This document shows, in pieces, positions 5,170-48,509 of a stretch of 64,000 bases of DNA. Made by a program: the position numbers and the translations under genes. The notes under the pieces were generated by a model. That model was not told the origin of the DNA, did not search any database, and saw only the letters and a program-made list of their open reading frames with translations. Source of the DNA: Dehalococcoidia bacterium. Lineage in GTDB: Bacteria > Chloroflexota > Dehalococcoidia > Lucifugimonadales > Australimonadaceae. The stretch is taken from NCBI GenBank assembly GCA_965249325.1, contig CBDFLP010000012.1:6428-70427 (forward strand), written 5' to 3'. Positions within the stretch are counted from its first letter, which is position 1, and the number at the start of each line of letters is the position of its first letter.

Positions 5170-5170
5170 G

Positions 5171-5593
5171 GTGCATCTAGGCGCGCATGTATTCGTGGAC
5201 GGCAACAACTTGATGGGCTCGCGCCCGGACGGGTGGTGGCGCGGCCGCGCGGCAGCGGAGCGGCGACTGGTCGAGCAGCTGGCGAGCGTCGCCCTGGATT
5301 TGGGCGGGCAGTGGACCGTCGTGTTCGACGGCGCGCCGCCAAGGGGCGAGCTTACGCCTCCGGCGCACGCGCTCAGCGTGGAGTACGCCGAACGTCGAGG
5401 CCCCGACGCTGCGGACGACCACATCGTGGGCCTCCTTGCCTCGCTGCCCAACGGAGCCGATGCGCTTGTCTACACATCGGACCGGCGGCTGCGCGAGCGA
5501 GCGTCCGCGCTGGCTGCGCGAGTGAAGGGCGTGAGCGCGTTGCTCAGGGAGATTGACGGCGGCGGGGAACGTCGGCGCGAGGAGCCACGATGA
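5171..5593 (+). CDS. NYN/YacP-like (PIN-fold) predicted RNA-binding protein
   Basis: GTG 5171 lies directly after the mutS stop. The sequence HLGAHVFVDGNNLMGSRPDGWW ... VVFDG ... VEYA..ADDHIV is the YacP/NYN pattern. Only the 3' part of ORF 4964..5593 is taken as real. Confidence 0.6.
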   Translation: MHLGAHVFVDGNNLMGSRPDGWWRGRAAAERRLVEQLASVALDLGGQWTVVFDGAPPRGELTPPAHALSVEYAERRGPDAADDHIVGLLASLPNGADALVYTSDRRLRERASALAARVKGVSALLREIDGGGERRREEPR

Positions 5594-6057
5594 CGAGTTG
5601 GGGCGACTTCGAGGCGGCGGACCCCGAGCTCGCGGCGTTAGGGCGGGCGCTGTTCTTGGAGACCCAGCTCACGCTCCTAGGTTCGCTGCGGAAGGACGGC
5701 TGGCCGCGCATCAGCCCCGTCGAGCCGCTCTTCCTCTCCGGGGAGCTCTACCTTGGCATGATGTGGCAGTCGCGCAAAGCCCTCGATCTCCTGCGGGATT
5801 CTCGCTGCACGGTTATGAACACGGTCCATGACCGCATGATCCCGGACGGCGAGTTCAAGCTATTCGGTCGCGCCGTCGAGGTCACGGACCCCGACGAGCG
5901 CGCGGCCTACGAGTCCGCACTCTACGAGCAATTAGGTTTCTCACCTACGGATACGGGCGACGAGGACTACCATCTATTCAAGATCGACGTCGCCAGCGCG
6001 TCCTTCGCCAAGATCCAGAACGACGAATGGGTGCGGAGGTTCTGGCGGGCGGGGTGA
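5590..6057 (+). CDS. Pyridoxamine 5'-phosphate oxidase (PPOX) family protein
   Basis: 155 aa with an ATGA overlap to the upstream gene. The GSLRKDGWPRISPVEP...GELYLG pattern is typical of split-barrel PPOX-like proteins. Confidence 0.65.
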   Translation: MTSWGDFEAADPELAALGRALFLETQLTLLGSLRKDGWPRISPVEPLFLSGELYLGMMWQSRKALDLLRDSRCTVMNTVHDRMIPDGEFKLFGRAVEVTDPDERAAYESALYEQLGFSPTDTGDEDYHLFKIDVASASFAKIQNDEWVRRFWRAG

Positions 6058-6127
6058 CCTCATCTCGTCGGAGTATGGCCTTTGGCCTGCTGAGAGCGGG
6101 TGAACCTGGACAGCGGCGTTACAATCA

Positions 6128-6937
6128 TTGCAGAGGTGGGCCATGGTCGATGAGCTGGTGAGGGAGCAAACCGAGACGGCGACGACGCAAGACCTCGCGG
6201 AGCAGTTCGCCCTGCGCCCCGACCTCGACGAGTCGCCTGAGTTCCTCGGCGGCCTATACAACCTGTCGGTCTGGAAGCCTAAGGACGCCGAGCACCGGTA
6301 CTTTCAGGAGCATGCTCCGAAGGCTGGCGAAGTCGCGCCGGACTTCACCCTCCCGCTCCTGGACGGCGGAGAGATTACTCTTTCGTCGCTGCGCGGGAAG
6401 CCGGTGATGATTGAGTTCGGCTCCGTCACCTGACCGCCGTGCGTAGCGGAGTCTCCGCTAATGGAACAGCTGGCCAAGCGGTATGCGGACGACGCGCACT
6501 TCCTGTTCGTCTACGTCCGCGAAGCACACCCCGGCGAGGCCTACCCGCCGCACCAGTACTACGAGCAGAAGACGCTGCACGCGAGGTCGTTCAGGGAGCG
6601 TCTGGGCATCGAGCGCACGATCGCAATCGATTCCCTGCAAGGCAAAGTGCACAGGGTGTACGGCGGCGTGTCGAACATGTCTTGGATCGTTGATCACACG
6701 GGCCGCGTCGCCTACCGGGCGGCATGGACAGTCGCGGACGACATAGAGTGGGCGCTCACGGAGATCATCGCGTCGCGGGAGCTGAAGCGCAGCGGGAAGT
6801 CCACCGCCACGTTCTACCGCGAGATCGTGGGGCTCCGGCCGCAACGCGCGCCGCTGGAGGGACTGCCGCGCTTCATGGGAGGCGCGGTGGCGGCGCGGCA
6901 GTTCGAAGCAGCCAAAGGGCGGACGGATCGGGGCTGA
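6128..6937 (+). CDS. Thioredoxin-fold, iodothyronine-deiodinase-like protein with in-frame UGA (probable selenocysteine at 6431-6433)
   Basis: ORFs 6128..6433 and 6461..6937 share one frame and are separated only by TGA. The context FGSVT-TGA-PPC puts the TGA at the nucleophile position of the GSxT[C/U]PP motif, and VYVREAHPGE follows downstream. A hairpin begins 10 nt after the TGA. Confidence 0.7.
6444..6460 (+). other. Putative bacterial SECIS hairpin
   Basis: Perfect 7-bp stem tagcgga / tccgcta with loop gtc, starting 10 nt after TGA 6431-6433. Confidence 0.55.
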
Positions 6938-7013
6938 TTGGCATATCCTGATAGCGATAGCTCCGCCGGGCGTAGTCACGGCGGCCTGATTCCGGAGGAG
7001 GACGTAGCCGATC

Positions 7014-7394
7014 GTGCCTATTTATGAGTTCAGATGCAATGCGTGCGGGGCCAAGTCCGCTCTCTTCTTCCGGCACATGACGACCGATGCGAAAGGGGAG
7101 TGCAGCCGGTGCGGCAGTCCCGACACGCGACGGCTCTTCTCGACCTTCCGCGTTCTCAAGCCCGCCGCCGACCCTAGCAAGCTGAACAAGGCGGAGCTGT
7201 TGGATGGCGTCGACTATACGAACCCGGGCTCTATGGCGCAGTTCTTCCGCCGCATGGGCGATTCGTTTGGCGACGCGCCCAACGAGCACATGGAAGAGAT
7301 AGTCGGAAGGCTCGACCACGGCGAGCCGGTGCACGAGGCGCTGGGGCTCGACATGGGCCACGATCACTCTGCCCCCGCTGCCGACGGCGACTGA
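7014..7394 (+). CDS. FmdB-family zinc-ribbon protein (CxxC...CxxC)
   Basis: MPIYEFRCNACGAKS...ECSRCGSPDTRRLFS is the canonical FmdB/CxxC_CxxC_SSSS N-terminus. Confidence 0.8.
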   Translation: MPIYEFRCNACGAKSALFFRHMTTDAKGECSRCGSPDTRRLFSTFRVLKPAADPSKLNKAELLDGVDYTNPGSMAQFFRRMGDSFGDAPNEHMEEIVGRLDHGEPVHEALGLDMGHDHSAPAADGD

Positions 7395-7421
7395 GCCAGG
7401 GGCCTACTCGCCTGCAATGCA

Positions 7422-7452
7422 AGAGGGGCGGGAGTATATCTCCCGCCCCTCT
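7422..7452. terminator. Bidirectional intrinsic-terminator-like hairpin between convergent genes
   Basis: 13-bp perfect inverted repeat agaggggcgggag / ctcccgcccctct with loop tatat. It lies between the + strand stop at 7394 and the - strand stop at 7482. Confidence 0.6.
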
Positions 7453-7481: not shown

Positions 7482-8522
7482 CTAGTCGGGGACGTTGGCG
7501 AATGCCGGGAAGACCTTCAACGGGTTGGTGTTGATGATCGTGATCTTGTCCTCTTCCGAGAGCGAAGGCAGGTAGTCGATGACCGGGAGCAGGTTGTCGG
7601 AGGTGAGGCCGACTGCGGTCTGGGACGGGTGGTCGCTTTCCTTACGCACGTTGCGGCCAGAGCCGGGGGCTTCGGTGCCGAAGGCAATGTTCGCTGGGCC
7701 CCACTGCTTGATGGCAAGCTCGAGGTAGTCGATGTCGTACGTGCAGGTGTCGAAGAAGAGGTTGTCGCCCTTCCACTTGCCCCGGTGGCCGGAGGAAGCG
7801 ATGAAGCGGTCCAGCGCGCCTCCCGCGTGGGCGATGCAGATGCGGAGGCCGGGGAACTTCTCGAAGATGTCGCTGTAGGCGAGGATGCGCGTTGCGAGGA
7901 ACGTTTCGACGACGAACCCGACCTGGTAGTTGCCGGGGATGTGGCCGATGCGCGGATCTAGGCAGTTGGTGCCGTGGATGAACACCGGCACGTCCCACTC
8001 CTGGCACTTCTCATACACGGGGTGCCAGTAGGGCTCGTGCATGCCGGGTGAGTTGTGGCGGCCGTCCGGGTCCGGGCTCAGGTACGTGCCGACGAACCCG
8101 TAGTCCTTCACGTTCATCTCGAACTCGGGGATGCAGTTGCTGAGGTCCGGGGCCTCGGCAATCTGGGGCAGCATGGACGCGCCGAGGAAGCGGGTGGGGT
8201 GGTTCTGCACCTGCTTGCGGATGGTGTCATTTGTGAACTCGCACCATGGGTCGTAGAGGTTGCGGGGCATCCAGCCCATCATCGTGAACGGGCGCGGGCC
8301 GATGACTTGCACGTCGATGTTCCGCTCGTCCATGTACTCCGCGTGCATCTTGTTCGTCGCGGCGAACGCGTCGTCGCTGAGGTCGCCGCCCGCCGAGCCG
8401 GTCGCCCGCAGCGGGCTTGCGCCTACGTGCCCGGAGGAGAACCCTCCAACGATCCACGAGCGGACCGAATTCGGCGCCGATACGTGGCCGTGCACATCAA
8501 GAACCTTCGTGCCTTTGAACAT
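7482..8522 (-). CDS. Amidohydrolase_2 family metal-dependent hydrolase/decarboxylase (ACMSD-like)
   Basis: 346 aa. The N-terminal VLDVHGHV metal-binding HxH motif, a later HGT..., and IAHAGG are typical of this family. Confidence 0.85.
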   Translation of the reverse strand: MFKGTKVLDVHGHVSAPNSVRSWIVGGFSSGHVGASPLRATGSAGGDLSDDAFAATNKMHAEYMDERNIDVQVIGPRPFTMMGWMPRNLYDPWCEFTNDTIRKQVQNHPTRFLGASMLPQIAEAPDLSNCIPEFEMNVKDYGFVGTYLSPDPDGRHNSPGMHEPYWHPVYEKCQEWDVPVFIHGTNCLDPRIGHIPGNYQVGFVVETFLATRILAYSDIFEKFPGLRICIAHAGGALDRFIASSGHRGKWKGDNLFFDTCTYDIDYLELAIKQWGPANIAFGTEAPGSGRNVRKESDHPSQTAVGLTSDNLLPVIDYLPSLSEEDKITIINTNPLKVFPAFANVPD

Positions 8523-8607
8523 AGTCTCTCCCTTTTGCGCCTATCGGATCCTCCGCGGCGCGGTGTGTTGGTATCGAGAAGCGGGAGTCCCGCTTCAGAA
8601 GTCGATT

Positions 8608-9885
8608 CTATCCTACGAGCTCCCCTGCCTCTGCGGGAAGCTGGTCGAATATCTTCGCGTTCGAGTACTCCTCATGGACCGGCACCTGATGCTGCAGGTC
8701 AATCAGTTTGCCGGTCTTGGCCGATTCGATCACGGCGAGGGTGGCTTCGAGGGTCGCCATGCCCCACTCGGGCGTGTGGTAAACGGGCGCGCCTTCGACG
8801 ACCGCCTCGTAGAGCTCCTTGAGCTCGGCGCGGCGGTTCATCGCCCAGCCGTTGGGGGGCTTGAGGTCGATGGTGTGGTGGCCGTTGTTGTCGTAGATGG
8901 TGATGCCGTAGGGGGAGCGCGTGATGTCGCCACGGTCGCAGGACACGACGACGAAGCCCGGCTCAGCGGGGACCCAAGGTTCGCCGCCTGGATCGCGGTT
9001 CTGGCCCTCGCGCTTGAAGATTTCGACCTCTCTCTCGCCGCCGATGCGGATGGCCTGCTTATCGGACTCTTCGTCGCGGCTGCCGGTGATCATCCCGTTG
9101 CGGACGAGCATACGTTCAGGCTCGTCGTAGCGCTGGCGGTCGTGGCCCCAGGGCACCATCTGGGCACCCATGAAGTAGCCGTGGGCGTTATGGACGATGG
9201 TGGAAAAAGCGCCGTTCTCAAACTCGAATATCGCCGAGTAGTAGCCGGGGATGGGCCGTTCGGGCATCCACTGCCCGACGACGCCCCGCACGTTCTTTAT
9301 CATGCCGCCGCCCAGGAGACGGACCGTATCTATCTGGTGGGGCCCCTGGCGGTAGACGAGCCCGCCGCCCTGCGCCAGGTCCAACTCCTCGGCGACGCGG
9401 GGGCGGAGGAGCCAGTCGGTGTAGGCCATGAAGTTGATGGACCGGACCGCTCCAAGCTGGCCGGACTGGATGATGCTGTACATCTTGCGGAAGGGAGGGA
9501 TGAACGACCGGGTGTGGCCGGCGATGAGCACGTTGCCGGTGCGCTTGGCGGCGTCGCACATGGCCTGGGCTTCAGCGAGGTTCAGGGCCATCGGCTTCTC
9601 GACGACGACGTGCTTGCCATGCTCGAGGGCGTAGATGGTCATGGGAGCGTGGAAGCGGTTGGGAGTGGAGATCCAGACGGCCTCGACCTCCGGGTCCTCG
9701 CACAGCTCTTCGATGCTGGGGTAGACCTTGGCCTCGTAGCGGGCCTGGAAGCGCTCTCTGGTAAGGGGGTTGATGTCGGCGCCGGCGATGAGGTCGATCT
9801 CTTCCATCTGCTCAAAGGCCGGCAGCATCTCCGTGCCTCCTACGCCGATGCCGGCCATCGCGACGCCAAGGGTTCTCTTCGCCAT
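8608..9885 (-). CDS. Gfo/Idh/MocA family oxidoreductase
   Basis: 425 aa with an N-terminal Rossmann motif (LGVAMAGIGVGG) and the EKP motif (HVVVEKPMAL). Confidence 0.85.
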   Translation of the reverse strand: MAKRTLGVAMAGIGVGGTEMLPAFEQMEEIDLIAGADINPLTRERFQARYEAKVYPSIEELCEDPEVEAVWISTPNRFHAPMTIYALEHGKHVVVEKPMALNLAEAQAMCDAAKRTGNVLIAGHTRSFIPPFRKMYSIIQSGQLGAVRSINFMAYTDWLLRPRVAEELDLAQGGGLVYRQGPHQIDTVRLLGGGMIKNVRGVVGQWMPERPIPGYYSAIFEFENGAFSTIVHNAHGYFMGAQMVPWGHDRQRYDEPERMLVRNGMITGSRDEESDKQAIRIGGEREVEIFKREGQNRDPGGEPWVPAEPGFVVVSCDRGDITRSPYGITIYDNNGHHTIDLKPPNGWAMNRRAELKELYEAVVEGAPVYHTPEWGMATLEATLAVIESAKTGKLIDLQHQVPVHEEYSNAKIFDQLPAEAGELVG

Positions 9886-9965
9886 CTACAGCTCCTCCGC
9901 AGAATCCGTGAGGTGGGTGTATCACCGAGTGGCGGGCGTGTCAAACCCGCAGGCGTTAACAATGC

Positions 9966-10385
9966 TTAAACGAGAGTCTTCTCCATGAAGACGAGTTCGT
10001 CGCGGATGTAGCCGATGCCGTCGTAGAAGCGCTGGACGCCGCTGTTATCCGGCTCGATGAGAAGGTTGACCTTCACGCATCCAATCGCCCGAAAGCGCGC
10101 TTCGAGCTCCGCCATGAGCATCGTGCCGAGACCGTTCCGCTGTCGGCGCGGAGCGACAGCGAGGTGGTTCACCCACCCGCGACGTCCGTCGTAGCAGCCC
10201 AACACCGCGCCCACGACTTGGCCATCGACCTCGCCAACGATGAACAGTTCAGGGTCGCGTTCGAGCTTCTGCTGGATGCTTTGAGCGTCGTCCGATAGGT
10301 GTAGCGTCAGCCCGGCGGCGCGCCAAAGGGCTGCGACCTGCTCGTAGTCGCGCATCTCGAACGTTCTGATGAGTACGTCGGCCAT
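9966..10385 (-). CDS. GNAT family N-acetyltransferase
   Basis: 139 aa. The acetyl-CoA binding motif is HLAVAPRRQRNGLGTMLM (Q/RxxGxG/A). Confidence 0.85.
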   Translation of the reverse strand: MADVLIRTFEMRDYEQVAALWRAAGLTLHLSDDAQSIQQKLERDPELFIVGEVDGQVVGAVLGCYDGRRGWVNHLAVAPRRQRNGLGTMLMAELEARFRAIGCVKVNLLIEPDNSGVQRFYDGIGYIRDELVFMEKTLV

Positions 10386-10415
10386 GGTCAGCGTACTAGG
10401 GCCTTACCTGCGAGT

Positions 10416-10634
10416 TCAAAGAGACTCCCACTCAGCCTTGCTTACGCCAGCTTCCCGCAGAATGCTCATTAGAAGAGAGGTGTGGATGGCGCCTCTGTGG
10501 GGGTTGGGCAGTGGAACGCGAGTCCGGCCACGCTTCATGAATCCGTGAGGTGCGCCAGATCGCGGGCCGGTAAAACCTGCACGGCGTAAGGCTGCAATCA
10601 ACTCGCGCCGGTCGATAGGCCCCAGGCGCGGCAT
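10416..10634 (-). CDS. hicA: HicA-family toxin (mRNA interferase)
   Basis: 72 aa. The pattern ...RELIAALRRAGF....SG..HGFMKR......VPLPNPH.G.I....L..IL...G... is the YcfA/HicA pattern. It overlaps the upstream antitoxin gene by 1 nt. Confidence 0.8.
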   Translation of the reverse strand: MPRLGPIDRRELIAALRRAGFTGPRSGAPHGFMKRGRTRVPLPNPHRGAIHTSLLMSILREAGVSKAEWESL

Positions 10635-10873
10635 CAGGCCGTCTGTGCGAGGTTCAGGCTGATGCCGTCCATGGTGGGCAGGTCATCTCCCTCGCGTAGG
10701 GCAAGGAGGAGCCAGTCCTCGAATACACTCCGCAATTCCTCGCGGCAGGCTTCGAGGGTATTCTCGTTGGCCCATAGGCCTTGAAAGCCCTCGATTGTTC
10801 CGAAGAACGAGCCATCATCCAGCGCCTCGTAGCGCGCTTTGCGCATGCTGGCTCGTATGTATGCTGTCAGCAT
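10634..10873 (-). CDS. hicB: HicB-like antitoxin (UPF0150 fold)
   Basis: Start is taken at MLTAYIR (10873) inside ORF 10634..10936. FFGTIEGFQGLWANENTLEACREELRSVFEDWL matches the HicB N-terminal domain pattern. Confidence 0.7.
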   Translation of the reverse strand: MLTAYIRASMRKARYEALDDGSFFGTIEGFQGLWANENTLEACREELRSVFEDWLLLALREGDDLPTMDGISLNLAQTA

Positions 10874-10949
10874 GTCCGTCTCCTTTGAGCGGTACTCCTC
10901 GCTGCGATTATGGCACACCCCGCTTGGACCGCGCACAAGACCGTCGCCG

Positions 10950-12257
10950 CTACTCCCCCCGCGCGGCGAGATCTTCCTGCAGCAGGCGCTCTGCGTAGGC
11001 GACGAGGGACTGCTCCCGGTCGGCGGGGGTGGACTTGGCCTTGAAGTACCGGCGCAGCGCGTCGATGGGGCCGAGCCGCTCCGCGTCGTCGGTTGCGAGG
11101 CGGGTGCGGCGGTCGCGATGCACTCGGCGCTCGACGCCCGCGATGTGGAAGGCCGACGTTAGCGCCTGGCGCACAGCGGACTCGCGGAACGCCGGCTCCT
11201 GTTCCGCGGTCATCTCGACCCGGAGCCGGACGATGGAGCGTTCGAGTCCCTCGCCCGAGTGCTTGCCGACGGCCTCCAGCGCAGCGTCGGTGGGGTCCTC
11301 GGCAGCGCGCGTTGGCACGTCGATGGTGAGCATGGGCCGGGTGTCGACGGCCACGAACTCGTAGCTCACGAGCCGTTCGCCCTGGGGCTTGGCGGGGTCG
11401 ATATCGACGATGACGAAGCCCTTGTCCTCGCGCTCCTCGCTGAAGTCGACACGCTCGATGCTGCCTGCGTAGACGACCGGGGGGTTCTGGGTCAGCGTCT
11501 GGTGCTTGTGGATGTTGCCCAAGGCGACATAGTCGAACTGGGGCAGCGCAACGGTTCCCAGGCCGATGACGTGGTCGTTGCCGAGCATCATGGATTGCTC
11601 GGAGGCAGTCTTCGCGCCGGAGACGTTGACGTGGGCGCAGAGCACTGCGGGGGTGTTGGGGTCGAGGGCGGCGACCTCCTCCCGGAGATGGTCGGTGAGG
11701 CGCGCCTCGACCGCCAGTTTGATCTGTTCGAGGGTGAGTCCGCGCGTCTCCTCGCGGGCCATGAAGTGGCCGATGCGTATCCAAGGCAGGGCGACGACTT
11801 GAATGTCGCCTGCGTTCGTGTGGACGCGGCGCGTCTCCAAGGTCTGGCTGACGATGACGTTGTCGACGTTCAGCGTGGGGAATATCTCAAGGGCGGAGGC
11901 CCGGTTCGCGACGTGGGGCAGGTCGTGGTTGCCTACGGTGAGGAGCGCAGGGACGCCCGCGGCGGACAGGCGGGCGATGCGGCGCGCGAACTCGCGCTGG
12001 TGGGTCTGGGACGGGTCGCGCGACTTGTAGGCGTCGCCCGCGAAGAGGAAGAGGTCGACGCCGTGGTTGATGGCGTAGTCGACGGCGTAGTCCAGGGCGG
12101 TGAGGAAGTCGAGCAGGCGCGTGCTGACGCCGACGTACTGGGACCGCTCTTGGTCGGGGGCGAAGTAGGCCGGCAGCGCGGCGATGTCCTCCTCGGTCGC
12201 GGGTCGGCCGTAGGACTCAACGCCTATGTGGATGTCGGAGATGTGGAGGAGGCGCAT
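10950..12257 (-). CDS. SbcD/Mre11-type metallophosphoesterase (DNA repair exonuclease)
   Basis: 435 aa with calcineurin-like motifs ISDIHIG, AGDAYK, GNHD and HV. No SbcC-like ATPase is adjacent. Confidence 0.8.
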   Translation of the reverse strand: MRLLHISDIHIGVESYGRPATEEDIAALPAYFAPDQERSQYVGVSTRLLDFLTALDYAVDYAINHGVDLFLFAGDAYKSRDPSQTHQREFARRIARLSAAGVPALLTVGNHDLPHVANRASALEIFPTLNVDNVIVSQTLETRRVHTNAGDIQVVALPWIRIGHFMAREETRGLTLEQIKLAVEARLTDHLREEVAALDPNTPAVLCAHVNVSGAKTASEQSMMLGNDHVIGLGTVALPQFDYVALGNIHKHQTLTQNPPVVYAGSIERVDFSEEREDKGFVIVDIDPAKPQGERLVSYEFVAVDTRPMLTIDVPTRAAEDPTDAALEAVGKHSGEGLERSIVRLRVEMTAEQEPAFRESAVRQALTSAFHIAGVERRVHRDRRTRLATDDAERLGPIDALRRYFKAKSTPADREQSLVAYAERLLQEDLAARGE

Positions 12258-37765: not shown

Positions 37766-38062
37766 CTATGCGCTTCTCGGCGCGACAGGCAATCTCCGCA
37801 CGGCTGCTCCGGCGTGTTCCTCGGCGACGGCGAGATCGAACTGCGTCTGAAGGTTCAGCCAGAACTGGGGGTCGACGTCGAACCAGTGTCCCAGGCGGAG
37901 GGCCGTGTCGCCGGTCACTGAGCGCTTGCCCGCGATAATCTGACTGATGCGGTTGGGCGGGACATCGATTGCGCGCGCGAACGCCGTCGGGCTGACGCCC
38001 AGCTCGTCGAGCTCATCCTTCAGCACCTCTCCGGGGTGAACAGCGCGCCTGAACATTCCCAT
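37766..38062 (-). CDS. higA: HigA-type antitoxin (XRE-family HTH)
   Basis: Start is at MGMFRRAVHPGEVLKDELDELGVSPTAFARAIDVPPNRISQIIAGKRSVTGDTALRLGHWF, the canonical HigA/VapI HTH_3 pattern. Confidence 0.8.
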   Translation of the reverse strand: MGMFRRAVHPGEVLKDELDELGVSPTAFARAIDVPPNRISQIIAGKRSVTGDTALRLGHWFDVDPQFWLNLQTQFDLAVAEEHAGAAVRRLPVAPRSA

Positions 38063-38072
38063 CGTCTCCTCT

Positions 38073-38357
38073 CTAATGGTAGTCGACAATCTCGACTTCG
38101 GTTGGACCAGCGTGGCCGCTAGGCCAGCTGAAGCAGATACGCCATTGCCGGTTGATGCGGATGGCATACAGTCCTTCCCGATCACCCCTGAGCGTCTCCA
38201 GGCGGTTGCTGGGCAACGCTCGCAAAGTATCCAGCGACGGCGCAGCGTTCAGGACTGAGAGCCGCTTGGCCGCCTGCTGCTCGAATCCTTGGAATGCTGC
38301 AACGAACGCGCCGCCGGCGAATAATTCGGTCCGCTTGCCCCCGTACCCGAGAATCAT
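38073..38357 (-). CDS. higB: HigB-type toxin (RelE/ParE superfamily, plasmid maintenance killer-like)
   Basis: Start is at MILGYGGKRTELF. ...LRALPSNRLETLRGDREGLYAIRINRQWRICFSW..G...EVEIVDYH matches the HigB C-terminal signature. It lies 10 nt upstream of higA. Confidence 0.75.
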   Translation of the reverse strand: MILGYGGKRTELFAGGAFVAAFQGFEQQAAKRLSVLNAAPSLDTLRALPSNRLETLRGDREGLYAIRINRQWRICFSWPSGHAGPTEVEIVDYH

Positions 38358-38442
38358 GGTAAGAAGATAGCACATCGTGTGACGATGTACGTCAATCGTA
38401 CATGCAAGCGCCAGGTATAGCAAGGACGATTCACACGTCTCC

Positions 38443-38583: not shown

Positions 38584-38763
38584 CGGCATGACCTTCCCAG
38601 CCAGGAAATCAAGAGGTCTCTTCACGCAAACGGATGACAGTTGGCCCTTGCCTGTTCGCCGCGCCCATCCTTAGCCTGTCTTCACAGCCTCTATCCCGGC
38701 GTATCGTGAGGGGGCGAAATAGGGGAGGACGCCGTGGGCGACGCTATGCTGGTTCCAGTAAGC

Positions 38764-39270
38764 ATGAAGCGAATGATGAGTGTGATGGTGATGGCTCTGG
38801 TGTTGTTCGTCTCTTGCCAAGATGCAACACCGGAACCACTTCCCACACCTGTTTCATACAACTGGCTATACTAAACCTATCAGCGAGAACGTGAAGCTAA
38901 CCCCACACGACTAGAGCAGAGAATAAAAGTCAGGCCACTTCATGTTGTCGAAGGACCGATTACCAGCATTCAGGGTTCGAAAATTCAATTCCATATTCGG
39001 CAAGTAATGCTGGGGAAAGACAAGTATGTTGAGTGTGTCTTCCCAGAGGACCGTTACGTGTTGGCTCTAAATATTGGGGAGACGGTATTAGTTGCAGGTA
39101 GACTAGATAGGGCCGATGAGGTTGTCAGGTTGACTGGCTGCATCCTGGTTCCTAAAGGCTACTTTTCCAATGAGCTGCTAAAGTTGACTCCTACTGCAGG
39201 GCCAACTCCAACCCCCACTGCGACACCACTCCCAACTCCCACTGCGGGGCCAACTCCAACCCCCCTGTGA
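38764..39270 (+). pseudogene. OB-fold (tRNA_anti-like) lipoprotein interrupted by in-frame TAA at 38872-38874
   Basis: MKRMMSVMVMALVLFVSC (lipobox) ...SYNWLY-TAA-TYQREREANPTRLEQRIKVRPLHVVEGPITSIQ... continues in the same frame into listed ORF 39007..39270, and a PT-rich tail follows. The region is visibly low in GC. Confidence 0.5.
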
Positions 39271-42040: not shown

Positions 42041-43234
42041 ATGGCGAGCAGGCCTGACCGCACCATCTATATGGATCACGCCGCGACCACGGCCATCGCG
42101 CCTGAAGTGGTCGAGGCGATGCGGCCCTACCTGACAGAGGGATACGGCAACCCGTCGAGCATCTACGCGCTTGGGCAGCAGGCGCGTCGCGCCATCGACG
42201 ACGCGCGGGAGCGGTGCGCCAAGGTCTTGGGCGCTCGGGCGGGGGAGATCGTCTTCACGAGCGGCGGGACCGAGTCGGACAACGCCGGCATCATGGGCCC
42301 AGCCCTGGCGCTGAAGGACCAAGGCCGTCACATCGTGACCACGAAGATCGAGCACCACGCGGTGCTGCACGCGGCCGCGCTGCTGGAAACGCTCGGCTGG
42401 GAAGCGTCCTACGTCGCGCCCAGCAAGGACGGCGTCGTGCGTGCGGGGGACGTGCTAGACGCGGTGCGGCGGGAGACGACCGTCGTGAGCGTGATGCTGG
42501 CGAACAACGAGATCGGGACGGTCCAGCCCGTCGCCGAGGTCGCGCGCCTCGTGAAGGAGCGCGCATCGGTGGAGCGCCGGTCGATTGTCGTACACACGGA
42601 CGCGGTGCAGGCTGCGGGAGCGATGCCGGTGGACGTGGACGCCCTAGGCGTCGACCTCCTCTCGCTCTCGGCCCACAAGTTCAACGGCCCCAAGGGAGTC
42701 GGACTGCTGTACGTCCGGCGCGGCACGCCATTCACGCCCACGCAGGTCGGCGGCGGACAGGAGCGCGACCGGCGCGCGGGCACGGAGAACACCGCGGGCA
42801 TCGTCGGCATGAGCGTTGCGCTCGAGAACGCGGAGCGCCGCCGCGCCCGGAACGCGGCGGCCTGCGCCGGGCTGCGCGACCGGTTGGTCAGCGGCATCCT
42901 CGAACGGGTGGAGCGCGTCGAGGTGAACGGAGACCTCGACGCGAGGCTGCCGGGCAACGTGAACGTCTCCTTCCCCGGGGTGGAGGCCGAGCCGCTGCTG
43001 ATGGGGCTCGACCTCGCGGGAATCGCGGCGTCGAGCGGCAGCGCGTGTACGGCGGGCTCGCTGGAGCCGTCGCATGTTCTGCTGGCGTTGGGGCGGTCGA
43101 CGGAGGCGGCGAGGACGAGCCTCCGGCTCACGGTCGGGCCGGAGAACACCGAGGAGGAGGTGGACTACGTGGTGGAGACGATAGCCCGCTTGGCGCCCAA
43201 GCTGCGGGCGCTCTCCCGAAATGGGAGAGGCTAG
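42041..43234 (+). CDS. Cysteine desulfurase (NifS/IscS class, PLP-dependent)
   Basis: Start is at MASRPDRTIYMDHAATT. The PLP lysine motif is SLSAHKFNGPKG and the catalytic loop is SSGSACTAGSLEPSHVL. Only the 3' part of ORF 41954..43234 upstream of this start is uncertain. Confidence 0.9.
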   Translation: MASRPDRTIYMDHAATTAIAPEVVEAMRPYLTEGYGNPSSIYALGQQARRAIDDARERCAKVLGARAGEIVFTSGGTESDNAGIMGPALALKDQGRHIVTTKIEHHAVLHAAALLETLGWEASYVAPSKDGVVRAGDVLDAVRRETTVVSVMLANNEIGTVQPVAEVARLVKERASVERRSIVVHTDAVQAAGAMPVDVDALGVDLLSLSAHKFNGPKGVGLLYVRRGTPFTPTQVGGGQERDRRAGTENTAGIVGMSVALENAERRRARNAAACAGLRDRLVSGILERVERVEVNGDLDARLPGNVNVSFPGVEAEPLLMGLDLAGIAASSGSACTAGSLEPSHVLLALGRSTEAARTSLRLTVGPENTEEEVDYVVETIARLAPKLRALSRNGRG

Positions 43235-43242
43235 GCAATCGC

Positions 43243-43869
43243 GTGAGGCTCCCACCGCCGCTCGAGGAGTTCCTGTACGAGCCGCCGGTCGCGCCGACGA
43301 TCTGGCCGCGGCGCGTCTTCCATCTGCTGGCCGGCTCGTCCATACCCGTCGTCATCCTCTTTCTGCCGAGGGACGTGGTCGAGTGGGGCTTGATTGCGGC
43401 GAGCGTGATTGCGGTGTTGTTCGAGCTCGTGCGGAGTCTGGCGCCCTCGATGAACGAGCTGGCGGTCCGACGTCTGCCGTTCTTCAAAGACTCGGAGCGC
43501 TGGCAGGTGACCGGCGCGACCTATATGACGCTGTCGGCGACGTTCATCGTGTTCGTATTCGACAAGGAGGTCGCGGTGCTCGCCCTGTTGTTCCTGTCCG
43601 TGGGCGACCCCTTCGCGGCCCTCATCGGCGTTCGGGACCACCGGACGCGCGTGTTCGGCAAGTCGCTGGCGGGAGCGGTCGCCTTCACGAGCGCCGCCAT
43701 CGGCGCCGGCCTGCTGGCGTCGCTCCATCCCGACGTTCCGCTGGCGTGGTGGATCGTCCCCGGCGCGGTCGTCGCCGCCGCCGCGGAGCTCGCGCCCCTG
43801 CCGATCGACGACAACATCACCGTGCCGCTGGCGGCGTCGGTGGCGATGGCGCTCCTGGCATTGGCGTAG
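43243..43869 (+). CDS. CTP-dependent phosphatidate cytidylyltransferase / dolichol(phytol)-kinase family membrane protein
   Basis: GTG 43243. The protein is multi-TM and carries SVGDPFAALIGVRDHRTRVFGKSLAGAVAF, resembling the CTP_transf_1 signature. It is only the tail of the 551-aa ORF 42214..43869. Confidence 0.55.
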   Translation: MRLPPPLEEFLYEPPVAPTIWPRRVFHLLAGSSIPVVILFLPRDVVEWGLIAASVIAVLFELVRSLAPSMNELAVRRLPFFKDSERWQVTGATYMTLSATFIVFVFDKEVAVLALLFLSVGDPFAALIGVRDHRTRVFGKSLAGAVAFTSAAIGAGLLASLHPDVPLAWWIVPGAVVAAAAELAPLPIDDNITVPLAASVAMALLALA

Positions 43870-43878
43870 ACTTTGCGC

Positions 43879-44751
43879 ATGCTGGAGATACGCGCCCCCC
43901 GGGACTTCCCCTTTCCCGGTTCATGGGGATGGTCTTTAGACCACGATCCTGTCTTGCAAGACCCGCGGGCGTCTGCGTTCGCCGAGGATGAAGTCGTTCT
44001 CGACCTACGCGAATGCGTCCGCGTGGACTTCCCCGCCGCGTTGTGGTGCGCGGTATATGCGTCCTTGGTGCGGAACGCAGGTGTCGCGTGTCGCCTGCTG
44101 GCTCCCAGGGATTTGAGCGCGGCCGCCTATCTCAGGGAGCTAGGACTGTTCTCCGCGTTGGGCGACAGGGGCGTTACGGTCGAGGCCGTGACAACTGAAT
44201 TCGCAATCGACCACGTCGTAGTGCTTCCGATCACGAATTTCTCGACTACCAATGGGGCCGAGGAGTTGGCCTATGAGGCTTTAGACCGGTGGAACCAAGG
44301 TCAGATTCCAGGCAATCTACGCAGCCAGGCGTCGGAGACGTTCGGCGAACTTGCGAACAATGCTGCTGAACACGCCCAGTCCCCCGTGGGGGCATTCGGC
44401 ATAATTCTGTTCTACCAGGATGGGCGGTCCCCTCAGAGCGCTCGGCATCTGGCCTGCGCCGTCGCCGACGGAGGGTTGGGAATCAGAGAAGCGCTTGGCC
44501 GCAATCCAACATTGCGGCGCACGACCGATAGCGAGGCCATTGAACTTGCGCTCCGCGAACGAAACAGCGGGACGGGACTGCCCTCCCGTGGGATAGGCCT
44601 GTCTTGGGTCACCCAATCGTCGCCCCTCTTGACCGTACACTCCGGCGGTGGAGTTGTCGTGATAGGCTCGGAGGAGGTTCCTCCACACAGTCGTGAGGAT
44701 GACATCGTGTTCCCGGGCACGTACGTTTCAGCGAGCGTCAACTTTGGTTAG
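43879..44751 (+). CDS. GHKL-type (histidine-kinase-like) ATPase with N-terminal STAS-like region
   Basis: N-box FGELANNAAEHA, G1 box AVADGGLGI and G2-like SGTGLPSRGIGLS are present. The N-terminal VVLDLRECVRVDFPAAL...YLRELGLFSAL resembles a STAS/anti-anti-sigma fold. Start is ATG 43879 (or TTG 43873). Confidence 0.6.
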   Translation: MLEIRAPRDFPFPGSWGWSLDHDPVLQDPRASAFAEDEVVLDLRECVRVDFPAALWCAVYASLVRNAGVACRLLAPRDLSAAAYLRELGLFSALGDRGVTVEAVTTEFAIDHVVVLPITNFSTTNGAEELAYEALDRWNQGQIPGNLRSQASETFGELANNAAEHAQSPVGAFGIILFYQDGRSPQSARHLACAVADGGLGIREALGRNPTLRRTTDSEAIELALRERNSGTGLPSRGIGLSWVTQSSPLLTVHSGGGVVVIGSEEVPPHSREDDIVFPGTYVSASVNFG

Positions 44752-44755
44752 CCCC

Positions 44756-45076
44756 ATGTCGCACATCGCTATTGGCAACTTAATCCACAAGCGGGTTCTG
44801 ACGGCGCGTGACTCGGTGAAGGCGGTTGCGCCGGAGATAGTTGACGCAGCTGCCAGGGGCAGCGGGGAGATTATTTTCGACTTCTCTGGCGTCGAGGCTG
44901 CGGGGCCGTCCGTGCTCGAACAGTTGCTATCGACCGTGGCGCATCTGTCCGGCGGCAGGGACATCCTGTTCTTGAACATGCCCGGCGATTCGCTCAAGGT
45001 TGAGATGGTCGCGCGCGCTCACAACCGCTCCGTCGTCGAGGATGAACGGGGGGGCTGGCGGCTTACTGCTGCGTAG
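44756..45076 (+). CDS. STAS-like small protein (DUF4325-like)
   Basis: 106 aa starting 4 nt after the ATPase stop. [25 protein letters not shown]...ILFLNMP has the layout of STAS-like DUF4325 proteins. Confidence 0.55.
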
Positions 45077-45081
45077 CGTCC

Positions 45082-47121
45082 ATGCCCAACCTCCTTATCA
45101 ACGAGACTTCTCCCTACCTGCTGCAGCACGCTCATAATCCGGTGGACTGGCGGCCGTGGGGCGAGGAAGCGTTCGCGAAGGCCAGGGCGGAGGACAAGCC
45201 CGTCCTCGTTTCCATCGGCTACGCGGCGTGTCACTGGTGCCATGTGATGGAGCGCGAGTCCTTCGAGGATGAGACGGTCGCGCAGAAGATGAACGACCTC
45301 CTTGTCCCCATCAAAGTCGACCGCGAGGAGCGGCCCGACATCGACGGCATCTATATGGAGGCAATCCAGCGCATGCACGGGCACGGCGGCTGGCCGCTCA
45401 ACGTGTTCCTCATGCCGGACGGAAGGCCGTTCTACGGGGGGACGTACTTTCCGCCGACCGACCGCGGTGGCATGCCCTCCTGGTCCAAGGTGATCGACGC
45501 GGTGGCGGACGCCTATTACACGCGCCGGGACGCAGTCCTGGAGAACGCGCGCATCCTGACCGAGGCGCTCAGGACGTCGTCGCAGATGGACTCGCCCGAT
45601 GAGGCGGTGCGGGAGTCGACGCTGGACCTGGCCTACCGGGGCCTGGCGTCGATGTTCGACCCAGAGCATGGAGGCTTCGGCGGCGCTCCCAAGTTTCCAC
45701 AGTCGATGCCCCAAGAGTTCCTCCTCCGGTACTACGCCAGGACCGGTGAGGAGCACCCGCGCGAAATGGTGGAGGTCTCGCTTCAGCGGATGGCGAACGG
45801 GGGCATCTACGATCACCTGGGCGGTGGGTTCGCCCGGTATTCAACGGACGGTTTCTGGCTCGTGCCGCACTTCGAGAAGATGCTGTACGACAACGGGCTT
45901 CTCGCCTCGCTCTACCTTCAGGGGTTCCAAATCACGGGCGACCAACGCTACCGGGTGGTAGTGGAAGAGACGCTGGACTATCTGCTGCGCGATCTCCGGC
46001 ATGCCGACGGCGGCTTCTTCTCGTCGCAGGACGCCGACAGCGAAGGCGTCGAGGGGAAGTACTACGTATGGGCGCAGAGCGAGGTCGAACGTCTCCTGGG
46101 CGATGATGCGGCCTTGTTCATCCGCTACTACGGGGTGACTTCGCACGGCAACTTCGAGGGCCGCAACATACTCAATGTCCCGGACAGCGCCGCCGCCGCG
46201 GCGGCCGACCTGGGCGTGAGCGTCGACGAGCTTACCGAGCGCCTAGCGCCGATGCGTCAGACGCTTCTGGAGGAGCGGACCAAGCGCATCCCGCCCGCGA
46301 CCGACGATAAGGTGCTGACGGGCTGGAACGGCCTTGCCTTGCGGACGCTGTCGGAGGCCGCTTTCGTGCTGGACCGGCCCGACTACCGCGAGGCGGCTGA
46401 ACGCAACGCCGAATTCCTGCTCCGCGAGCTGCGCCCGGACGGGCGTGTACTGCGGACCTGGAAGGACGGTCGGGCGCATCTCGCCGGTTATCTGGAAGAC
46501 TATGCGCTGCTCATCAACGGGCTGCTCTCTCTGCACGCCGCGACCTTCTCGCGCCGGTGGCTCGTGGAAGCCAAGCATCTGGTCGACGAGATGATCGGGC
46601 TGTTCTGGGATGCCACAGCGGAGGCGTTCTACGACGTGGGGACCGACCACGAGGAGCTGATTGTCCGGCCCCGCGACACGTTCGATAACGCGGTCCCGAG
46701 CGGCGGTTCCGCCGCGGGGGAGGCGCTTCTGCGGGTGGCTGCGCTCACTGGGGACGAAGAGTACGCCGCAAAGGCGGCCCGACTGCTCAGGGGCGTCGCG
46801 CCGCTTGCATCGAGGCATCCAATGGGGTTCGGGAACTGGCTTCGAGCAATCGACCTTCACCTAGCTTCTCCGACGGAAGTGGTCATCGTGGGAGACCCGT
46901 CCTCCGAGGCGACTCGTGCGCTCCTCGCCCCGCTGCGCGAACGGTTCATGCCCACGGCGGCGTTCTTGGGCGTCGCCCCGGGCGATCCTTACTCGTTCTC
47001 GACTCCGCTTATCGAGGGCCGAACGGAGTCCGCCGTTCCGACGGCCTACGTGTGCCACGGGTATTCGTGCGACTTGCCGACGAGCGACCCGAACGTGCTC
47101 GCCGGTCAGCTTGGAGGGTGA
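45082..47121 (+). CDS. Thioredoxin-domain (DUF255) / six-hairpin glycosidase-like protein, YyaL/SSP411 family
   Basis: 679 aa. The canonical N-terminus is [51 protein letters not shown]. Confidence 0.9.
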
Positions 47122-47201: not shown

Positions 47202-48509
47202 ATGCAGGACCACCACGACGAGCCTAGAGTAGCGAATATGGTTGAACGCGGCTTTTGGTTCAGGACGGCCGTCGTGGCCGTGGCGCTCAGCGCCGTCGTT
47301 TTCCTTTTCAGCATCCTCGGGCGCATCTGGGGATTCCTGGGGGACCTCCTCCTCATCTTCTTCCTGGCGTATCTGGTTGGTTCGCTGGTGATTCACGTGG
47401 TGAACGCCGTTATGCGCGTGCCGCACATGACGCGGCCGGTAGCGATCTTCTTGGTATATGCCGTCTTTCTCATGCTCGTGGCCGTCTTTGGATTCCTGGT
47501 CATACCTTCGATCGTGAACCAGATCACCGAGCTGACGGAGGTCGTTCCCGAATACGTCGATCGGGCGCCGGAGCTCATTCAATGGGTTGAGGGGTCTTTG
47601 GCCCGCGCCGGCATTGAATTCGACCTCGAGAACCGGGTGCAGCTTGACTTCCTGAGCGACCTCGCCACCAGCACTGCCCAAGTTGTGGCGGACAACGCGG
47701 GCCAGATCCTTCAGAGCGTCGTGACCTTGATCTTTGGGGTCTCGTTGGTGGTGGTGATCTCGTTCTACATCGTGCTCGACGGGGGTCGCCGCCTGCATGA
47801 GTCGCTGAAGGTGCTGCCGCCCAGGGCCGAGCAGGAGGCGCGCTTCATCCTTCGGACCATCGACGACACCTTCTACGGGTACGTCCGGGGCATGCTGCTC
47901 GTGTCGATGATCTACGGCGTCGGCACCGCGGGAGTCATGATTGGGACGGGCTTGCCGGCGGCCCTGCCGGTGGCGTTGATATCCAGCATTCTGCTGGCGG
48001 TGCCATTCGTGGGAGACTGGCTTGCTCTCGCGCTGCCGCTGATCGTGGCCGCCGTGGCGGGCGACTTCCTCACGTTTATCATCGTGTTGGCGGTGCTGCT
48101 ATTCATACAGCAGGTGATGCTGAACCTGCTGACACCCAGGATTCTGGGCCGCGCCGTGCGGATGCCCGCCATGCTCGTCGTCGTTGCCGTGGTGGTTGGA
48201 GCGCGGCTCGCGGGTCTCGCGGGAGCGCTGCTCGGAGTGCCCACGATGGGCGTCATCCATGCATTGGCGGTCCACTACGGGCTCCGCATCCGGGAGCGGC
48301 GTGAACAGCGGGAGAACGCGGCTCGCGAGGCGGCGGAGCCCGTTGCCGTGGAGGCCGAGGCTGCCGGGAACGAGGCGACGGAAGAGGCCGAGCCCCGTCT
48401 CCTCGTCGCGGGAAGCTCTCCTTCAACGAATGGGGAGGGTGAAGAGCGCGCCCGGCTCAGGACGCAGGCCCCGCGCGCTCGGTTCGAGGGAGGCATGCCT
48501 CCCTGCTGA
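47202..48509 (+). CDS. AI-2E family transporter (PerM/UPF0118)
   Basis: 435 aa with about 8 TM segments and a charged C-terminal tail. The start could instead be MVERGF 36 nt downstream. Confidence 0.8.
   Translation: MQDHHDEPRVANMVERGFWFRTAVVAVALSAVVFLFSILGRIWGFLGDLLLIFFLAYLVGSLVIHVVNAVMRVPHMTRPVAIFLVYAVFLMLVAVFGFLVIPSIVNQITELTEVVPEYVDRAPELIQWVEGSLARAGIEFDLENRVQLDFLSDLATSTAQVVADNAGQILQSVVTLIFGVSLVVVISFYIVLDGGRRLHESLKVLPPRAEQEARFILRTIDDTFYGYVRGMLLVSMIYGVGTAGVMIGTGLPAALPVALISSILLAVPFVGDWLALALPLIVAAVAGDFLTFIIVLAVLLFIQQVMLNLLTPRILGRAVRMPAMLVVVAVVVGARLAGLAGALLGVPTMGVIHALAVHYGLRIRERREQRENAAREAAEPVAVEAEAAGNEATEEAEPRLLVAGSSPSTNGEGEERARLRTQAPRARFEGGMPPC

Follow-up and report, generated by a model that had tools for sequence, protein, structure and literature searches.

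The window analysed in this work is a stretch of 64,000 nucleotides from a Dehalococcoidia bacterium (assembly GCA_965249325.1, contig CBDFLP010000012.1), and it carries two adjacent genes, here named A and B, that are candidates for an ATP-driven partner-switching module. Gene A encodes a STAS-like domain fused to a GHKL domain, while gene B encodes a free-standing STAS-like protein of the DUF4325 type. The genes, domains, and motifs of the locus are listed in Table 1. Both open reading frames (ORFs) lie on the forward strand as had been described from the sequence alone, and their translations were confirmed. The start of gene A was assigned to the ATG at 43879 and not to the TTG at 43873 because the homologues of the protein begin with MLEIRAP. 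The stop codon of the upstream membrane-protein gene is separated from this ATG by 9 nt, gene A from gene B by 4 nt, and gene B from yyaL by 5 nt. The genes are tightly packed, and the sequence-only reading had given spacers of 3-5 nt on the two sides of the pair. No second copy of A or B was found within the 64-kb window.

Table 1. Genes, domains, and motifs of the A-B locus, with positions in the window
Feature	Position	Strand	Length or residues	Basis
Gene A, STAS-like + GHKL ATPase/kinase-like protein	43879..44751	+	290 aa	ORF, homologues, AlphaFold2 model, profile search
A, N-terminal STAS-like alpha/beta domain	43984..44244	+	residues 36-122	motif VVLDLRECVRVDFPAALW; model, weak STAS matches
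A, GHKL (Bergerat-fold) ATP-binding domain (predicted), SpoIIAB/RsbW type	44248..44748	+	residues 124-290	HATPase_c_2/HATPase_c matches
A, N box ELANNAAEH	44347..44373	+	E157, N161, H165	invariant in close and wider family
A, G1 box DGGLG	44467..44481	+	D197, G199, G201	D197 and G199 invariant down to 23% identity
A, G2 box RGIGL	44587..44601	+	R237, G238, G240	invariant in close and wider family
Gene B, free-standing DUF4325-type STAS-like protein	44756..45076	+	106 aa	family Pfam matches, model, linkage
B, core motif	44879..44920	+	D42, P51, S52; D55 in family	conservation in 70 B sequences
Upstream flank, conserved membrane protein	43231..43869	+	212 aa	64-95% identity in syntenic loci
Downstream flank, yyaL (Thioredox_DsbH/DUF255)	45082..47121	+	679 aa	Pfam E 5.5e-74; downstream neighbour in 19 loci

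Protein A consists of a STAS-like domain followed by a GHKL domain of the SpoIIAB/RsbW type that is predicted to bind ATP, and we conclude that it has no dimerisation and histidine phosphoacceptor (DHp) domain, membrane domain, or sensor domain. This is the architecture that had been proposed from the sequence alone. The Bergerat motifs that had been recognised in the 290-aa protein are also present, and they are conserved in 29 close homologues (278-305 aa) and in a distant set of 41 homologues. The residues E157, N161, A162, H165, D197-G198-G199-x-G201, G238, and G240 are invariant across the 29 close homologues. At 23-32% identity, the alignment is still full-length and E157, N161, H165, D197, G199, R237, G238, and G240 are still invariant. 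The Glu and Asn of the GHKL superfamily N box correspond to E157 and N161, which are invariant in both sets, and the G1 (DxGxG) and glycine-rich G2 boxes of the superfamily are present in A and are invariant or nearly so. The N box of A has the form ExxxNAxxH-A, which occurs in anti-sigma serine kinases and histidine kinases, and not the form ExxxNxxD, which is found in GyrB, Hsp90, and MutL. In an exhaustive search of 1.84 billion representatives, the profile of A matched 7,182 clusters defined at 50% identity with E<=1e-3, and 2,487 clusters with E<=1e-10. The conservation of the A motifs is therefore far beyond chance.

The matches of the wider-family A profile to sequences of solved structures in the PDB are coherent but marginal. 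The C-terminal half matched SpoIIAB (anti-sigma F, E 0.02-0.03) and an HWE kinase (E 0.0037), and the N-terminal half matched the STAS proteins MlaB, 4hyl, and TM1442 (E 0.04-0.13). HATPase_c_2 (PF13581) was matched below its cut-off by 18 of the 29 close homologues (best E 5.5e-5) and HATPase_c by eight, while the distant relative P0146 exceeds the HATPase_c_2 cut-off with 34.9 bits. Weak STAS_2 matches were found in relatives of A (E 8e-4, 1.8e-3, and 0.095), and two distant members exhibit weak STAS_2 matches within the N-terminal 60 residues. Neither A nor B matched NCBIfam. One distant relative exhibits a weak match to TIGR01925 spoIIAB (20 bits), which is the sole NCBIfam match among the distant relatives scanned, and one homologue of A carries the JGI label 'anti-sigma regulatory factor (Ser/Thr protein kinase)'. 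In the AlphaFold2 model of A, which is confident (predicted local distance difference test score, pLDDT, 84.5; predicted template modelling score, pTM, 0.88), an alpha/beta domain at the N-terminus precedes a GHKL-like domain. When the model was compared with the PDB using Foldseek, almost all of the top matches were GHKL proteins (Hsp90, sacsin, GyrB/ParE, CA domains, and an anti-sigma factor). No close structural relative of A was found in BFVD using Foldseek, where all matches were weak.

Protein B of the window scores 20.3 bits against STAS_2 (PF13466; E 6e-4, cut-off 29.2) and 13.5 bits against DUF4325 (PF14213; E 0.06, cut-off 23). Its orthologues, taken from the neighbouring genes, matched STAS_2 in eight of eight cases, all of them sub-threshold (best E 1.2e-5), and DUF4325 in five of eight (best E 2.6e-5). 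A profile of 48 B sequences recovered 64 further proteins, many of which have a precomputed PF14213 assignment, and some of these wider homologues are named 'STAS-like domain-containing protein' at NCBI. The model of B, likewise confident (pLDDT 93.8), exhibits a helix, strand, helix, strand, and helix, which is the order of the STAS core, followed by a C-terminal hairpin. The Foldseek matches of B in the PDB include RsbV (template modelling (TM) score 0.51-0.53), SpoIIAA, and another STAS protein. R18, D42, and P51 are the same in all 70 distinct B sequences, and W101, D55, and S52 are conserved in 69, 67, and 66 of them respectively. P51 begins the helix 51-60 in the model.

The N-terminal domain of A and protein B also resemble each other. 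The modelled order in A is beta38-42, alpha51-66, beta70-74, and alpha79-88, and the spacing of these elements equals that of B (strand at ~38-42, helix from 51, strand at ~70-74, and helix at 79-88). D42 and P76 are found in both. A common origin of the two is plausible from sequences and models. A direct assignment of the two as paralogues using hhalign was rejected as too weak since the alignment covers only the 19-column D...P motif (E 0.009, probability 4.5%).

The linkage of the two genes was determined from a locus scan of one genome per GTDB species that returned 71 loci, with the locus ORFs picked as anchored same-strand ORFs. The loci belong mostly to Dehalococcoidia, including SAR202, and about a third of them are labelled Planctomycetota/Phycisphaerae, 'Deltaproteobacteria', Binatia, Actinomycetota, Gemmatimonadales, or Brocadiaceae. 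In ~70 of 72 intact loci (71 species genomes), the gene that directly follows A on the same strand encodes a homologue of B, as the sequence-only reading would expect of a true pair. The A-B spacer is between -4 and +32 nt in 66 of 70 loci, and the two genes appear to be co-transcribed and translationally coupled. The exception among loci with a complete A and a continuing contig is L009/L010. The linkage also extends to distant relatives. Downstream of P0143 (L084), which has 26% identity to A, is a gene for a B-like protein of 128 aa (E 1.6e-13; DUF4325 19.4 bits), and the gene downstream of the distant P0148 encodes a 111-aa DUF4325-like protein.

The absence of a linked sigma factor or phosphatase, which had been noticed for the window pair, is a property of the other loci as well. 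The Pfam-annotated tables of seven related loci contain no sigma factor or PP2C/SpoIIE gene within +/-6-8 kb, and no sigma factor or PP2C gene was found among the immediate neighbours of ~42 further loci. Clustering of the ORFs within 6 kb gave the antisense shadow of A but no third family that recurs beyond 20 of the 75 loci.

The pair of the window occupies a defined site. The order speD, agmatinase, class-V aminotransferase, membrane protein, A, B, yyaL, and AI-2E transporter recurs in ~19 loci. The loci of this site form one clade in the A tree, in which the context clades are monophyletic, and their neighbouring proteins have diverged to 57-96% identity to those of the window. The pair has therefore occupied this site for a long time. 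Two related metagenome contigs, L088 and L089, lack A and B, and the membrane-protein gene directly abuts yyaL there. The empty junctions are TAA-CGTAGCGCC-ATG in L088 and TAA-CTCGTC-ATG in L089. The cassette is an insertion or deletion (indel) because of these empty junctions, and the flanking direct or inverted repeats at the window cassette are at chance level only. The best explanation is that the 1.2-kb cassette is an accessory insertion that has since been inherited vertically in one Dehalococcoidia clade. The pair had been described as inserted in a housekeeping cluster, and the empty sites bear this out, but the recurrence of the same site in ~19 loci does not agree with a recent arrival.

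Other clades carry the pair in other housekeeping settings. In nine Dehalococcoidia loci (L026, L044, L047, L050, L052, L055, L057, L058, and L063; ~8100-11650 in each), A-B lies between the gene of a methylmalonyl-CoA-mutase-type large subunit and the gene of a B12-binding subunit, and five of the nine have a gene for a 121-128-aa retropepsin-like protein (gag-asp_proteas) 26-27 nt upstream of A. One locus has A-B between Iso_dh and Ldh, and further settings are after gyrA or coaBC and before polA, chlI, lpxI, or fur. Same-strand ORFs of at least 100 aa are found within 50 nt on both sides of A-B in 24 of 69 loci. The immediate neighbours of the subfamily pairs are housekeeping genes and not defence genes. 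Genes of restriction-modification (RM) type (methylases, an Mrr-like nuclease, and an RE_CfrBI enzyme) are found 4-7 kb upstream in a few syntenic loci, and none of them adjoins A-B. A functional link of A-B to yyaL was considered and rejected, as empty sites exist between the membrane-protein gene and yyaL and other clades have different neighbours.

The G+C content of the pair is lower than that of both neighbours, as had been suspected, and the difference is real and located mainly at third codon positions (GC3). In the window, GC3 is 0.68 for A, 0.77 for B, and 0.82-0.91 for the flanking genes. In L001-L004 and L007, it is 0.60-0.70 for A, 0.68-0.83 for B, and 0.85-0.92 for the flanking genes. 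The low GC3 is found in five genomes, and the anomaly has therefore lasted through long vertical descent. A gene caller based on GC3 mis-called A because of its low GC3. Divergence was measured between the window and its closest relative, L001. The flanking genes exhibit 92-96% identity, with synonymous divergence (dS) of 0.10-0.24, non-synonymous divergence (dN) of 0.02-0.04, and dN/dS of 0.12-0.25. B exhibits 92% identity (dS 0.27, dN 0.06, dN/dS 0.22), and A exhibits 74% identity (dS 0.54, dN 0.18, dN/dS 0.33). The rise of ~2-7 fold is specific to A and affects both synonymous and non-synonymous divergence. It fits weaker compositional constraint together with faster protein evolution, and also the replacement of the A allele by recombination. 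The AI-2E family transporter gene at 47202-48509 of the window is also more diverged from L001 than its neighbours are (84% identity, dS 0.43, dN 0.09).

The wider family of A has members in a temperate phage and in or beside mobile elements. Gordonia phage Phishy gp32 ('histidine kinase', 283 aa) is a full-length match to the A profile with 120 bits. Its gene lies between the tail genes and the integrase/repressor block and is followed by a 75-aa ORF with a faint B-like motif only. In a tblastn search of phages, gp32 was the one real relative, and it occurs in no other phage record. The A subfamily had no match in IMG/VR. A search of plasmids using tblastn gave only partial Bradyrhizobium matches that have no DUF4325 neighbour. 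The Bradyrhizobium elkanii conjugative plasmid pS15H (L083, 3644-4600) encodes a hypothetical protein of 318 aa that has the layout STAS-like + GHKL and scores 55 bits against the A profile. Its gene has no DUF4325 neighbour and adjoins genes for DUF4365 and a DEAD/DEAH helicase. For a Francisella prophage, a published table lists two consecutive proteins between repressor and integrase, namely a hypothetical protein of 293 aa and a DUF4325 protein of 112 aa (PMC7924643). The P0143 pair adjoins DDE transposases, and the P0148 pair is part of an integrative element that also encodes a primase-polymerase, HTH_17 proteins, a GmrSD_C nuclease, and a LexA-like repressor.

DUF4325 is fused to other domains beside two further relatives of A. 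The gene downstream of P0146 (L090, 7900-11938) encodes a 671-aa protein with an N-terminal DUF4325 domain (26.6 bits, above cut-off), an N6_N4 DNA methylase, and a PKD-like tail. A ResIII helicase gene follows, and the whole is a type III-like RM unit preceded by a GHKL gene of the A family. Nearby in this locus are genes for TerB, BrxC/BrxD-like, DEAD helicase, TnsA-like, and patatin proteins. The gene downstream of P0155 (L093, 7946-8509) encodes a 187-aa protein with a DUF4325 domain (27.5 bits, above cut-off) and a winged helix-turn-helix (HTH) domain (HTH_24 24.8 bits, AbiEi_4 24.3 bits), in a Chloroflexota housekeeping context. A VapC-like PIN.4 group has also been reported to be transcriptionally coupled to DUF4325 genes (PMC5499597). 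Taken together, the leads from phage, prophage, transposases, integrative element, RM fusion, HTH fusion, and PIN coupling point to DUF4325 as a modular domain, a receiver or adaptor that is attached to or paired with different effectors, and to the STAS-GHKL protein as its dedicated regulator. Full-text searches of the literature gave no experimental characterisation of the A family and only incidental mentions.

We propose that A and B constitute a self-contained ATP-driven partner-switching module that acts on the DUF4325 domain, and we give this reading a probability of about 0.5. The GHKL domain of A (residues ~124-290), in which all predicted Mg-ATP contacts are intact, lies behind a STAS-like domain (~36-122) that is probably not phosphorylatable at the canonical position. 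B would be the cognate ligand of the GHKL domain. The binding of A and B would depend on the nucleotide, and B may be phosphorylated near the start of helix 2 (S52). The STAS-like domain of A may serve as a built-in competitor or pseudo-substrate. The binding or hydrolysis of ATP would then decide whether B (or A) is free for a third, unlinked partner. The cassette would ride on the transcription of the membrane-protein/yyaL operon.

Several points weigh against this reading. The analysis shows the domain architecture, the conserved motifs, the strict linkage of A and B, the indel status of the cassette, and its atypical composition and rate of evolution, whereas the physical binding of A to B, the turnover of or dependence on ATP, the phosphorylation, and the output to a third partner are steps that we infer. 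Both proteins of the window are below the cut-off of every curated profile, and A in particular scores 13.5 bits against HATPase_c_2 (E=0.076, cut-off 27.4). The matches to HATPase_c for the first protein and to DUF4325 or STAS for the second that the sequence-only reading had expected were therefore found among the homologues of A and the orthologues of B, but only at sub-threshold level for the window proteins themselves. The Foldseek matches of A in the PDB are weak, with none at E<=1e-3 and with low TM scores for a two-domain query, and those of B are likewise weak with none at E<=1e-3. The homology of the N-terminal domain of A to STAS proteins is suggested by several matches that are each marginal.

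The phosphorylation of B also meets a difficulty at the expected acceptor. In an hhalign alignment of B with SpoIIAA, which is non-significant, the phospho-acceptor Ser58 is matched by the invariant P51, and Ser59 by S52. B, a STAS-like protein of the DUF4325 type, is therefore probably not a canonical antagonist that can be phosphorylated, and S52 would be a candidate acceptor only. S52 is itself replaced by Ala or Gly in four of the 70 B sequences. The pair had been suggested to be a kinase-substrate unit, and this suggestion is weakened by a proline that seemingly occupies the canonical STAS phosphoserine position, with the adjacent serine retained in 66 of the 70 sequences only. Finally, A can exist without its proposed partner nearby. 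In L009, A is intact with all motifs kept (P0020), yyaL follows 8 nt after A, and B is absent. The same locus (4505-7431) is rearranged on the upstream side, where an N6_N4 methylase/HNH gene is found, and it has a phage-portal gene downstream of yyaL.

The pair could instead be a conflict or selfish module, toxin-antitoxin-like or phage-sensing, in which A is an ATP-dependent effector or sensor restrained by B, or the reverse. Such a module would persist by addiction or by protection against mobile elements. We regard this explanation, including its mode of persistence, as unlikely. It agrees with a two-gene cassette that has no fixed neighbours and is present or absent at one site, with its low GC3 and the fast evolution of A, and with the nesting of Proteobacterial and Binatia members among Chloroflexota in the A tree. 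The turnover at the site is nevertheless slow, since each context clade is monophyletic and genomes whose neighbouring genes are only 57-82% identical have the same site occupied; the dN/dS of 0.33 indicates purifying selection on A, and the cassette has no flanking repeats. The distant relatives also speak for conflict. These include the full-length phage relative between tail genes and integrase, the Francisella prophage pair, and the relatives beside DDE transposases or in the element that encodes a LexA-like repressor, a primase-polymerase, and a GmrSD_C nuclease, as well as the island that holds TerB, BrxC-BrxD, the DUF4325-carrying RM methylase, and ResIII. However, neither A nor B matched the defence models of PADLOC-DB 2.0 at E<=1, the subfamily is absent from IMG/VR, and its immediate neighbours are housekeeping genes. 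The conflict-system module offered by the sequence-only reading thus has its support in distant relatives that are phage-borne, transposon-flanked, or RM-fused, and not in the subfamily itself, which lies outside defence islands. A toxin of a type II toxin-antitoxin system would not be expected to persist without its adjacent antitoxin, and L009 keeps a motif-intact A from which B is cleanly absent, which argues against A as a toxin that is neutralised by B.

An ordinary anti-sigma/anti-anti-sigma pair of the RsbW/RsbV type, whose sigma factor and PP2C phosphatase are encoded elsewhere, is improbable. The GHKL domain of A is closest to SpoIIAB and RsbW among solved proteins, and the JGI name of one homologue and the weak STAS_2 matches of B point in the same direction. 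The two proteins nevertheless depart from this type, as A is twice the size of RsbW/SpoIIAB with an extra N-terminal domain and B is a DUF4325 protein in which an invariant proline takes the presumed place of the phosphoserine. The ~75 loci surveyed, which represent several phyla, have no sigma factor or PP2C gene near the pair, and the DUF4325 domains of the relatives are fused to a methylase or HTH domain and are not paired with a sigma factor.

The flanking genes were also considered. The upstream gene overlaps the stop of the aminotransferase gene by 4 nt at its start, and its 212-aa product exhibits a mean column identity of 83% across eight genomes. This protein has no match in Pfam or NCBIfam, so that its earlier assignment to the 'CTP-transferase family' is unverified. 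A pattern scan from speD (40654) to the AI-2E transporter gene gave no promoter-like site and no convincing terminator. The pair could also be a dedicated post-translational regulator of the flanking operon, with YyaL, the membrane protein, or the products of the polyamine and cysteine-desulfurase genes as its target. This would agree with the spacers of 4-9 nt, the lack of internal promoter-like or convincing terminator-like sites, and the adjacency of A and yyaL in 19 loci, among them L009, which has lost B. It is hardly probable, however, given that related contigs have the membrane-protein gene and yyaL adjacent without the pair, that in most of the remaining 50-odd loci the pair adjoins unrelated genes (for example those of mutase subunits, gyrA, coaBC, or Ldh), and that the anomalies of composition and rate mark the pair as foreign to the operon.

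Two other features were observed further upstream in the window. A HigB-like toxin gene (PF05015, E 1.3e-10) at 38073-38423 on the reverse strand overlaps an HTH_3/XRE antitoxin-like gene at 37766-38185, and the two are a type II toxin-antitoxin pair located ~5.5 kb upstream of A-B. The G+C content falls to 0.49 at 38750-39250, compared with the window mean of 0.65, and this trough adjoins small ORFs, including one that ends in a low-complexity tail rich in Pro and Thr, TPTAGPTPTPTATPLPTPTAGPTPTPL.

The proposed partner-switching module may be part of something wider. It is possible, though doubtful, that STAS-GHKL proteins and DUF4325 together represent a general and undescribed ATP-dependent switch that gates an RM methylase, a winged-helix regulator, PIN nucleases, or a free adaptor and operates without a sigma factor or PP2C. 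The cassette of the window would then be an effector-less, operon-embedded version that could sense stress or infection or work as an addiction module, with A under diversifying pressure at one site. The A family is large (~7,200 clusters at 50% identity) and its partner is still a DUF in Pfam. An obligate pair of an ATPase regulator and a regulated DUF4325 protein, if true, would be a new sigma-independent branch of partner-switching signalling and would give a handle on the control of DUF4325-carrying restriction-modification enzymes and HTH regulators. The locus offers a test case, as it has natural empty sites, a conserved operon, and an ATPase that evolves several times faster than its surroundings.

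The findings in this work can be compared with known partner-switching systems. A is similar to the kinases of the SpoIIAB/SpoIIAA and RsbW/RsbV pairs in its ExxxNAxxH N box, DxGxG G1 box, and RGxGL G2 box, and SpoIIAB is among its best matches of solved structure. The pair is also similar to them in having a small adjacent STAS-like partner, as B matches RsbV at a TM score of ~0.5. However, A has ~290 aa compared with ~145 aa in SpoIIAB/RsbW and carries an extra N-terminal STAS-like domain. B differs from SpoIIAA/RsbV in being a DUF4325 protein with Pro at the expected phosphoserine position, and A-B differs from RsbW-RsbV-sigma-PP2C systems in that no linked sigma factor or PP2C gene is found in any of the ~75 loci surveyed. 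Fused or sigma-independent variants of the partner switch are known in Mycobacterium tuberculosis Rv1364c, Pseudomonas aeruginosa SiaB/SiaC, and Bordetella BtrW/BtrV. Such variants are a precedent for the fusion of an RsbW-like kinase with a STAS domain, and also for pairs of a kinase and a STAS-like protein that have a non-sigma output. The domain order of Rv1364c (kinase, then STAS) is the reverse of that in A, and Rv1364c, SiaB/SiaC, and BtrW/BtrV include PP2C and a phosphorylatable Ser/Thr.

B carries the core motif lDFsGVe..tPSFxDE of Pfam PF14213 (DUF4325, 'STAS-like domain of unknown function'), and its subfamily differs from PF14213 in having its own C-terminal extension (P76 ... R87-x-H89 ... 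W101). The VapC-like PIN.4/DUF4325 units (PMC5499597) resemble A-B as two-gene units that consist of a DUF4325 protein and an enzymatic partner, although the partner there is a PIN nuclease and not a GHKL ATPase. The proposed system is not categorically new. It is GHKL/STAS partner switching that differs from the known systems in the lack of a linked sigma factor or PP2C gene, in a DUF4325 partner with Pro, and in the fusion of a STAS-like domain to the GHKL domain within one protein.

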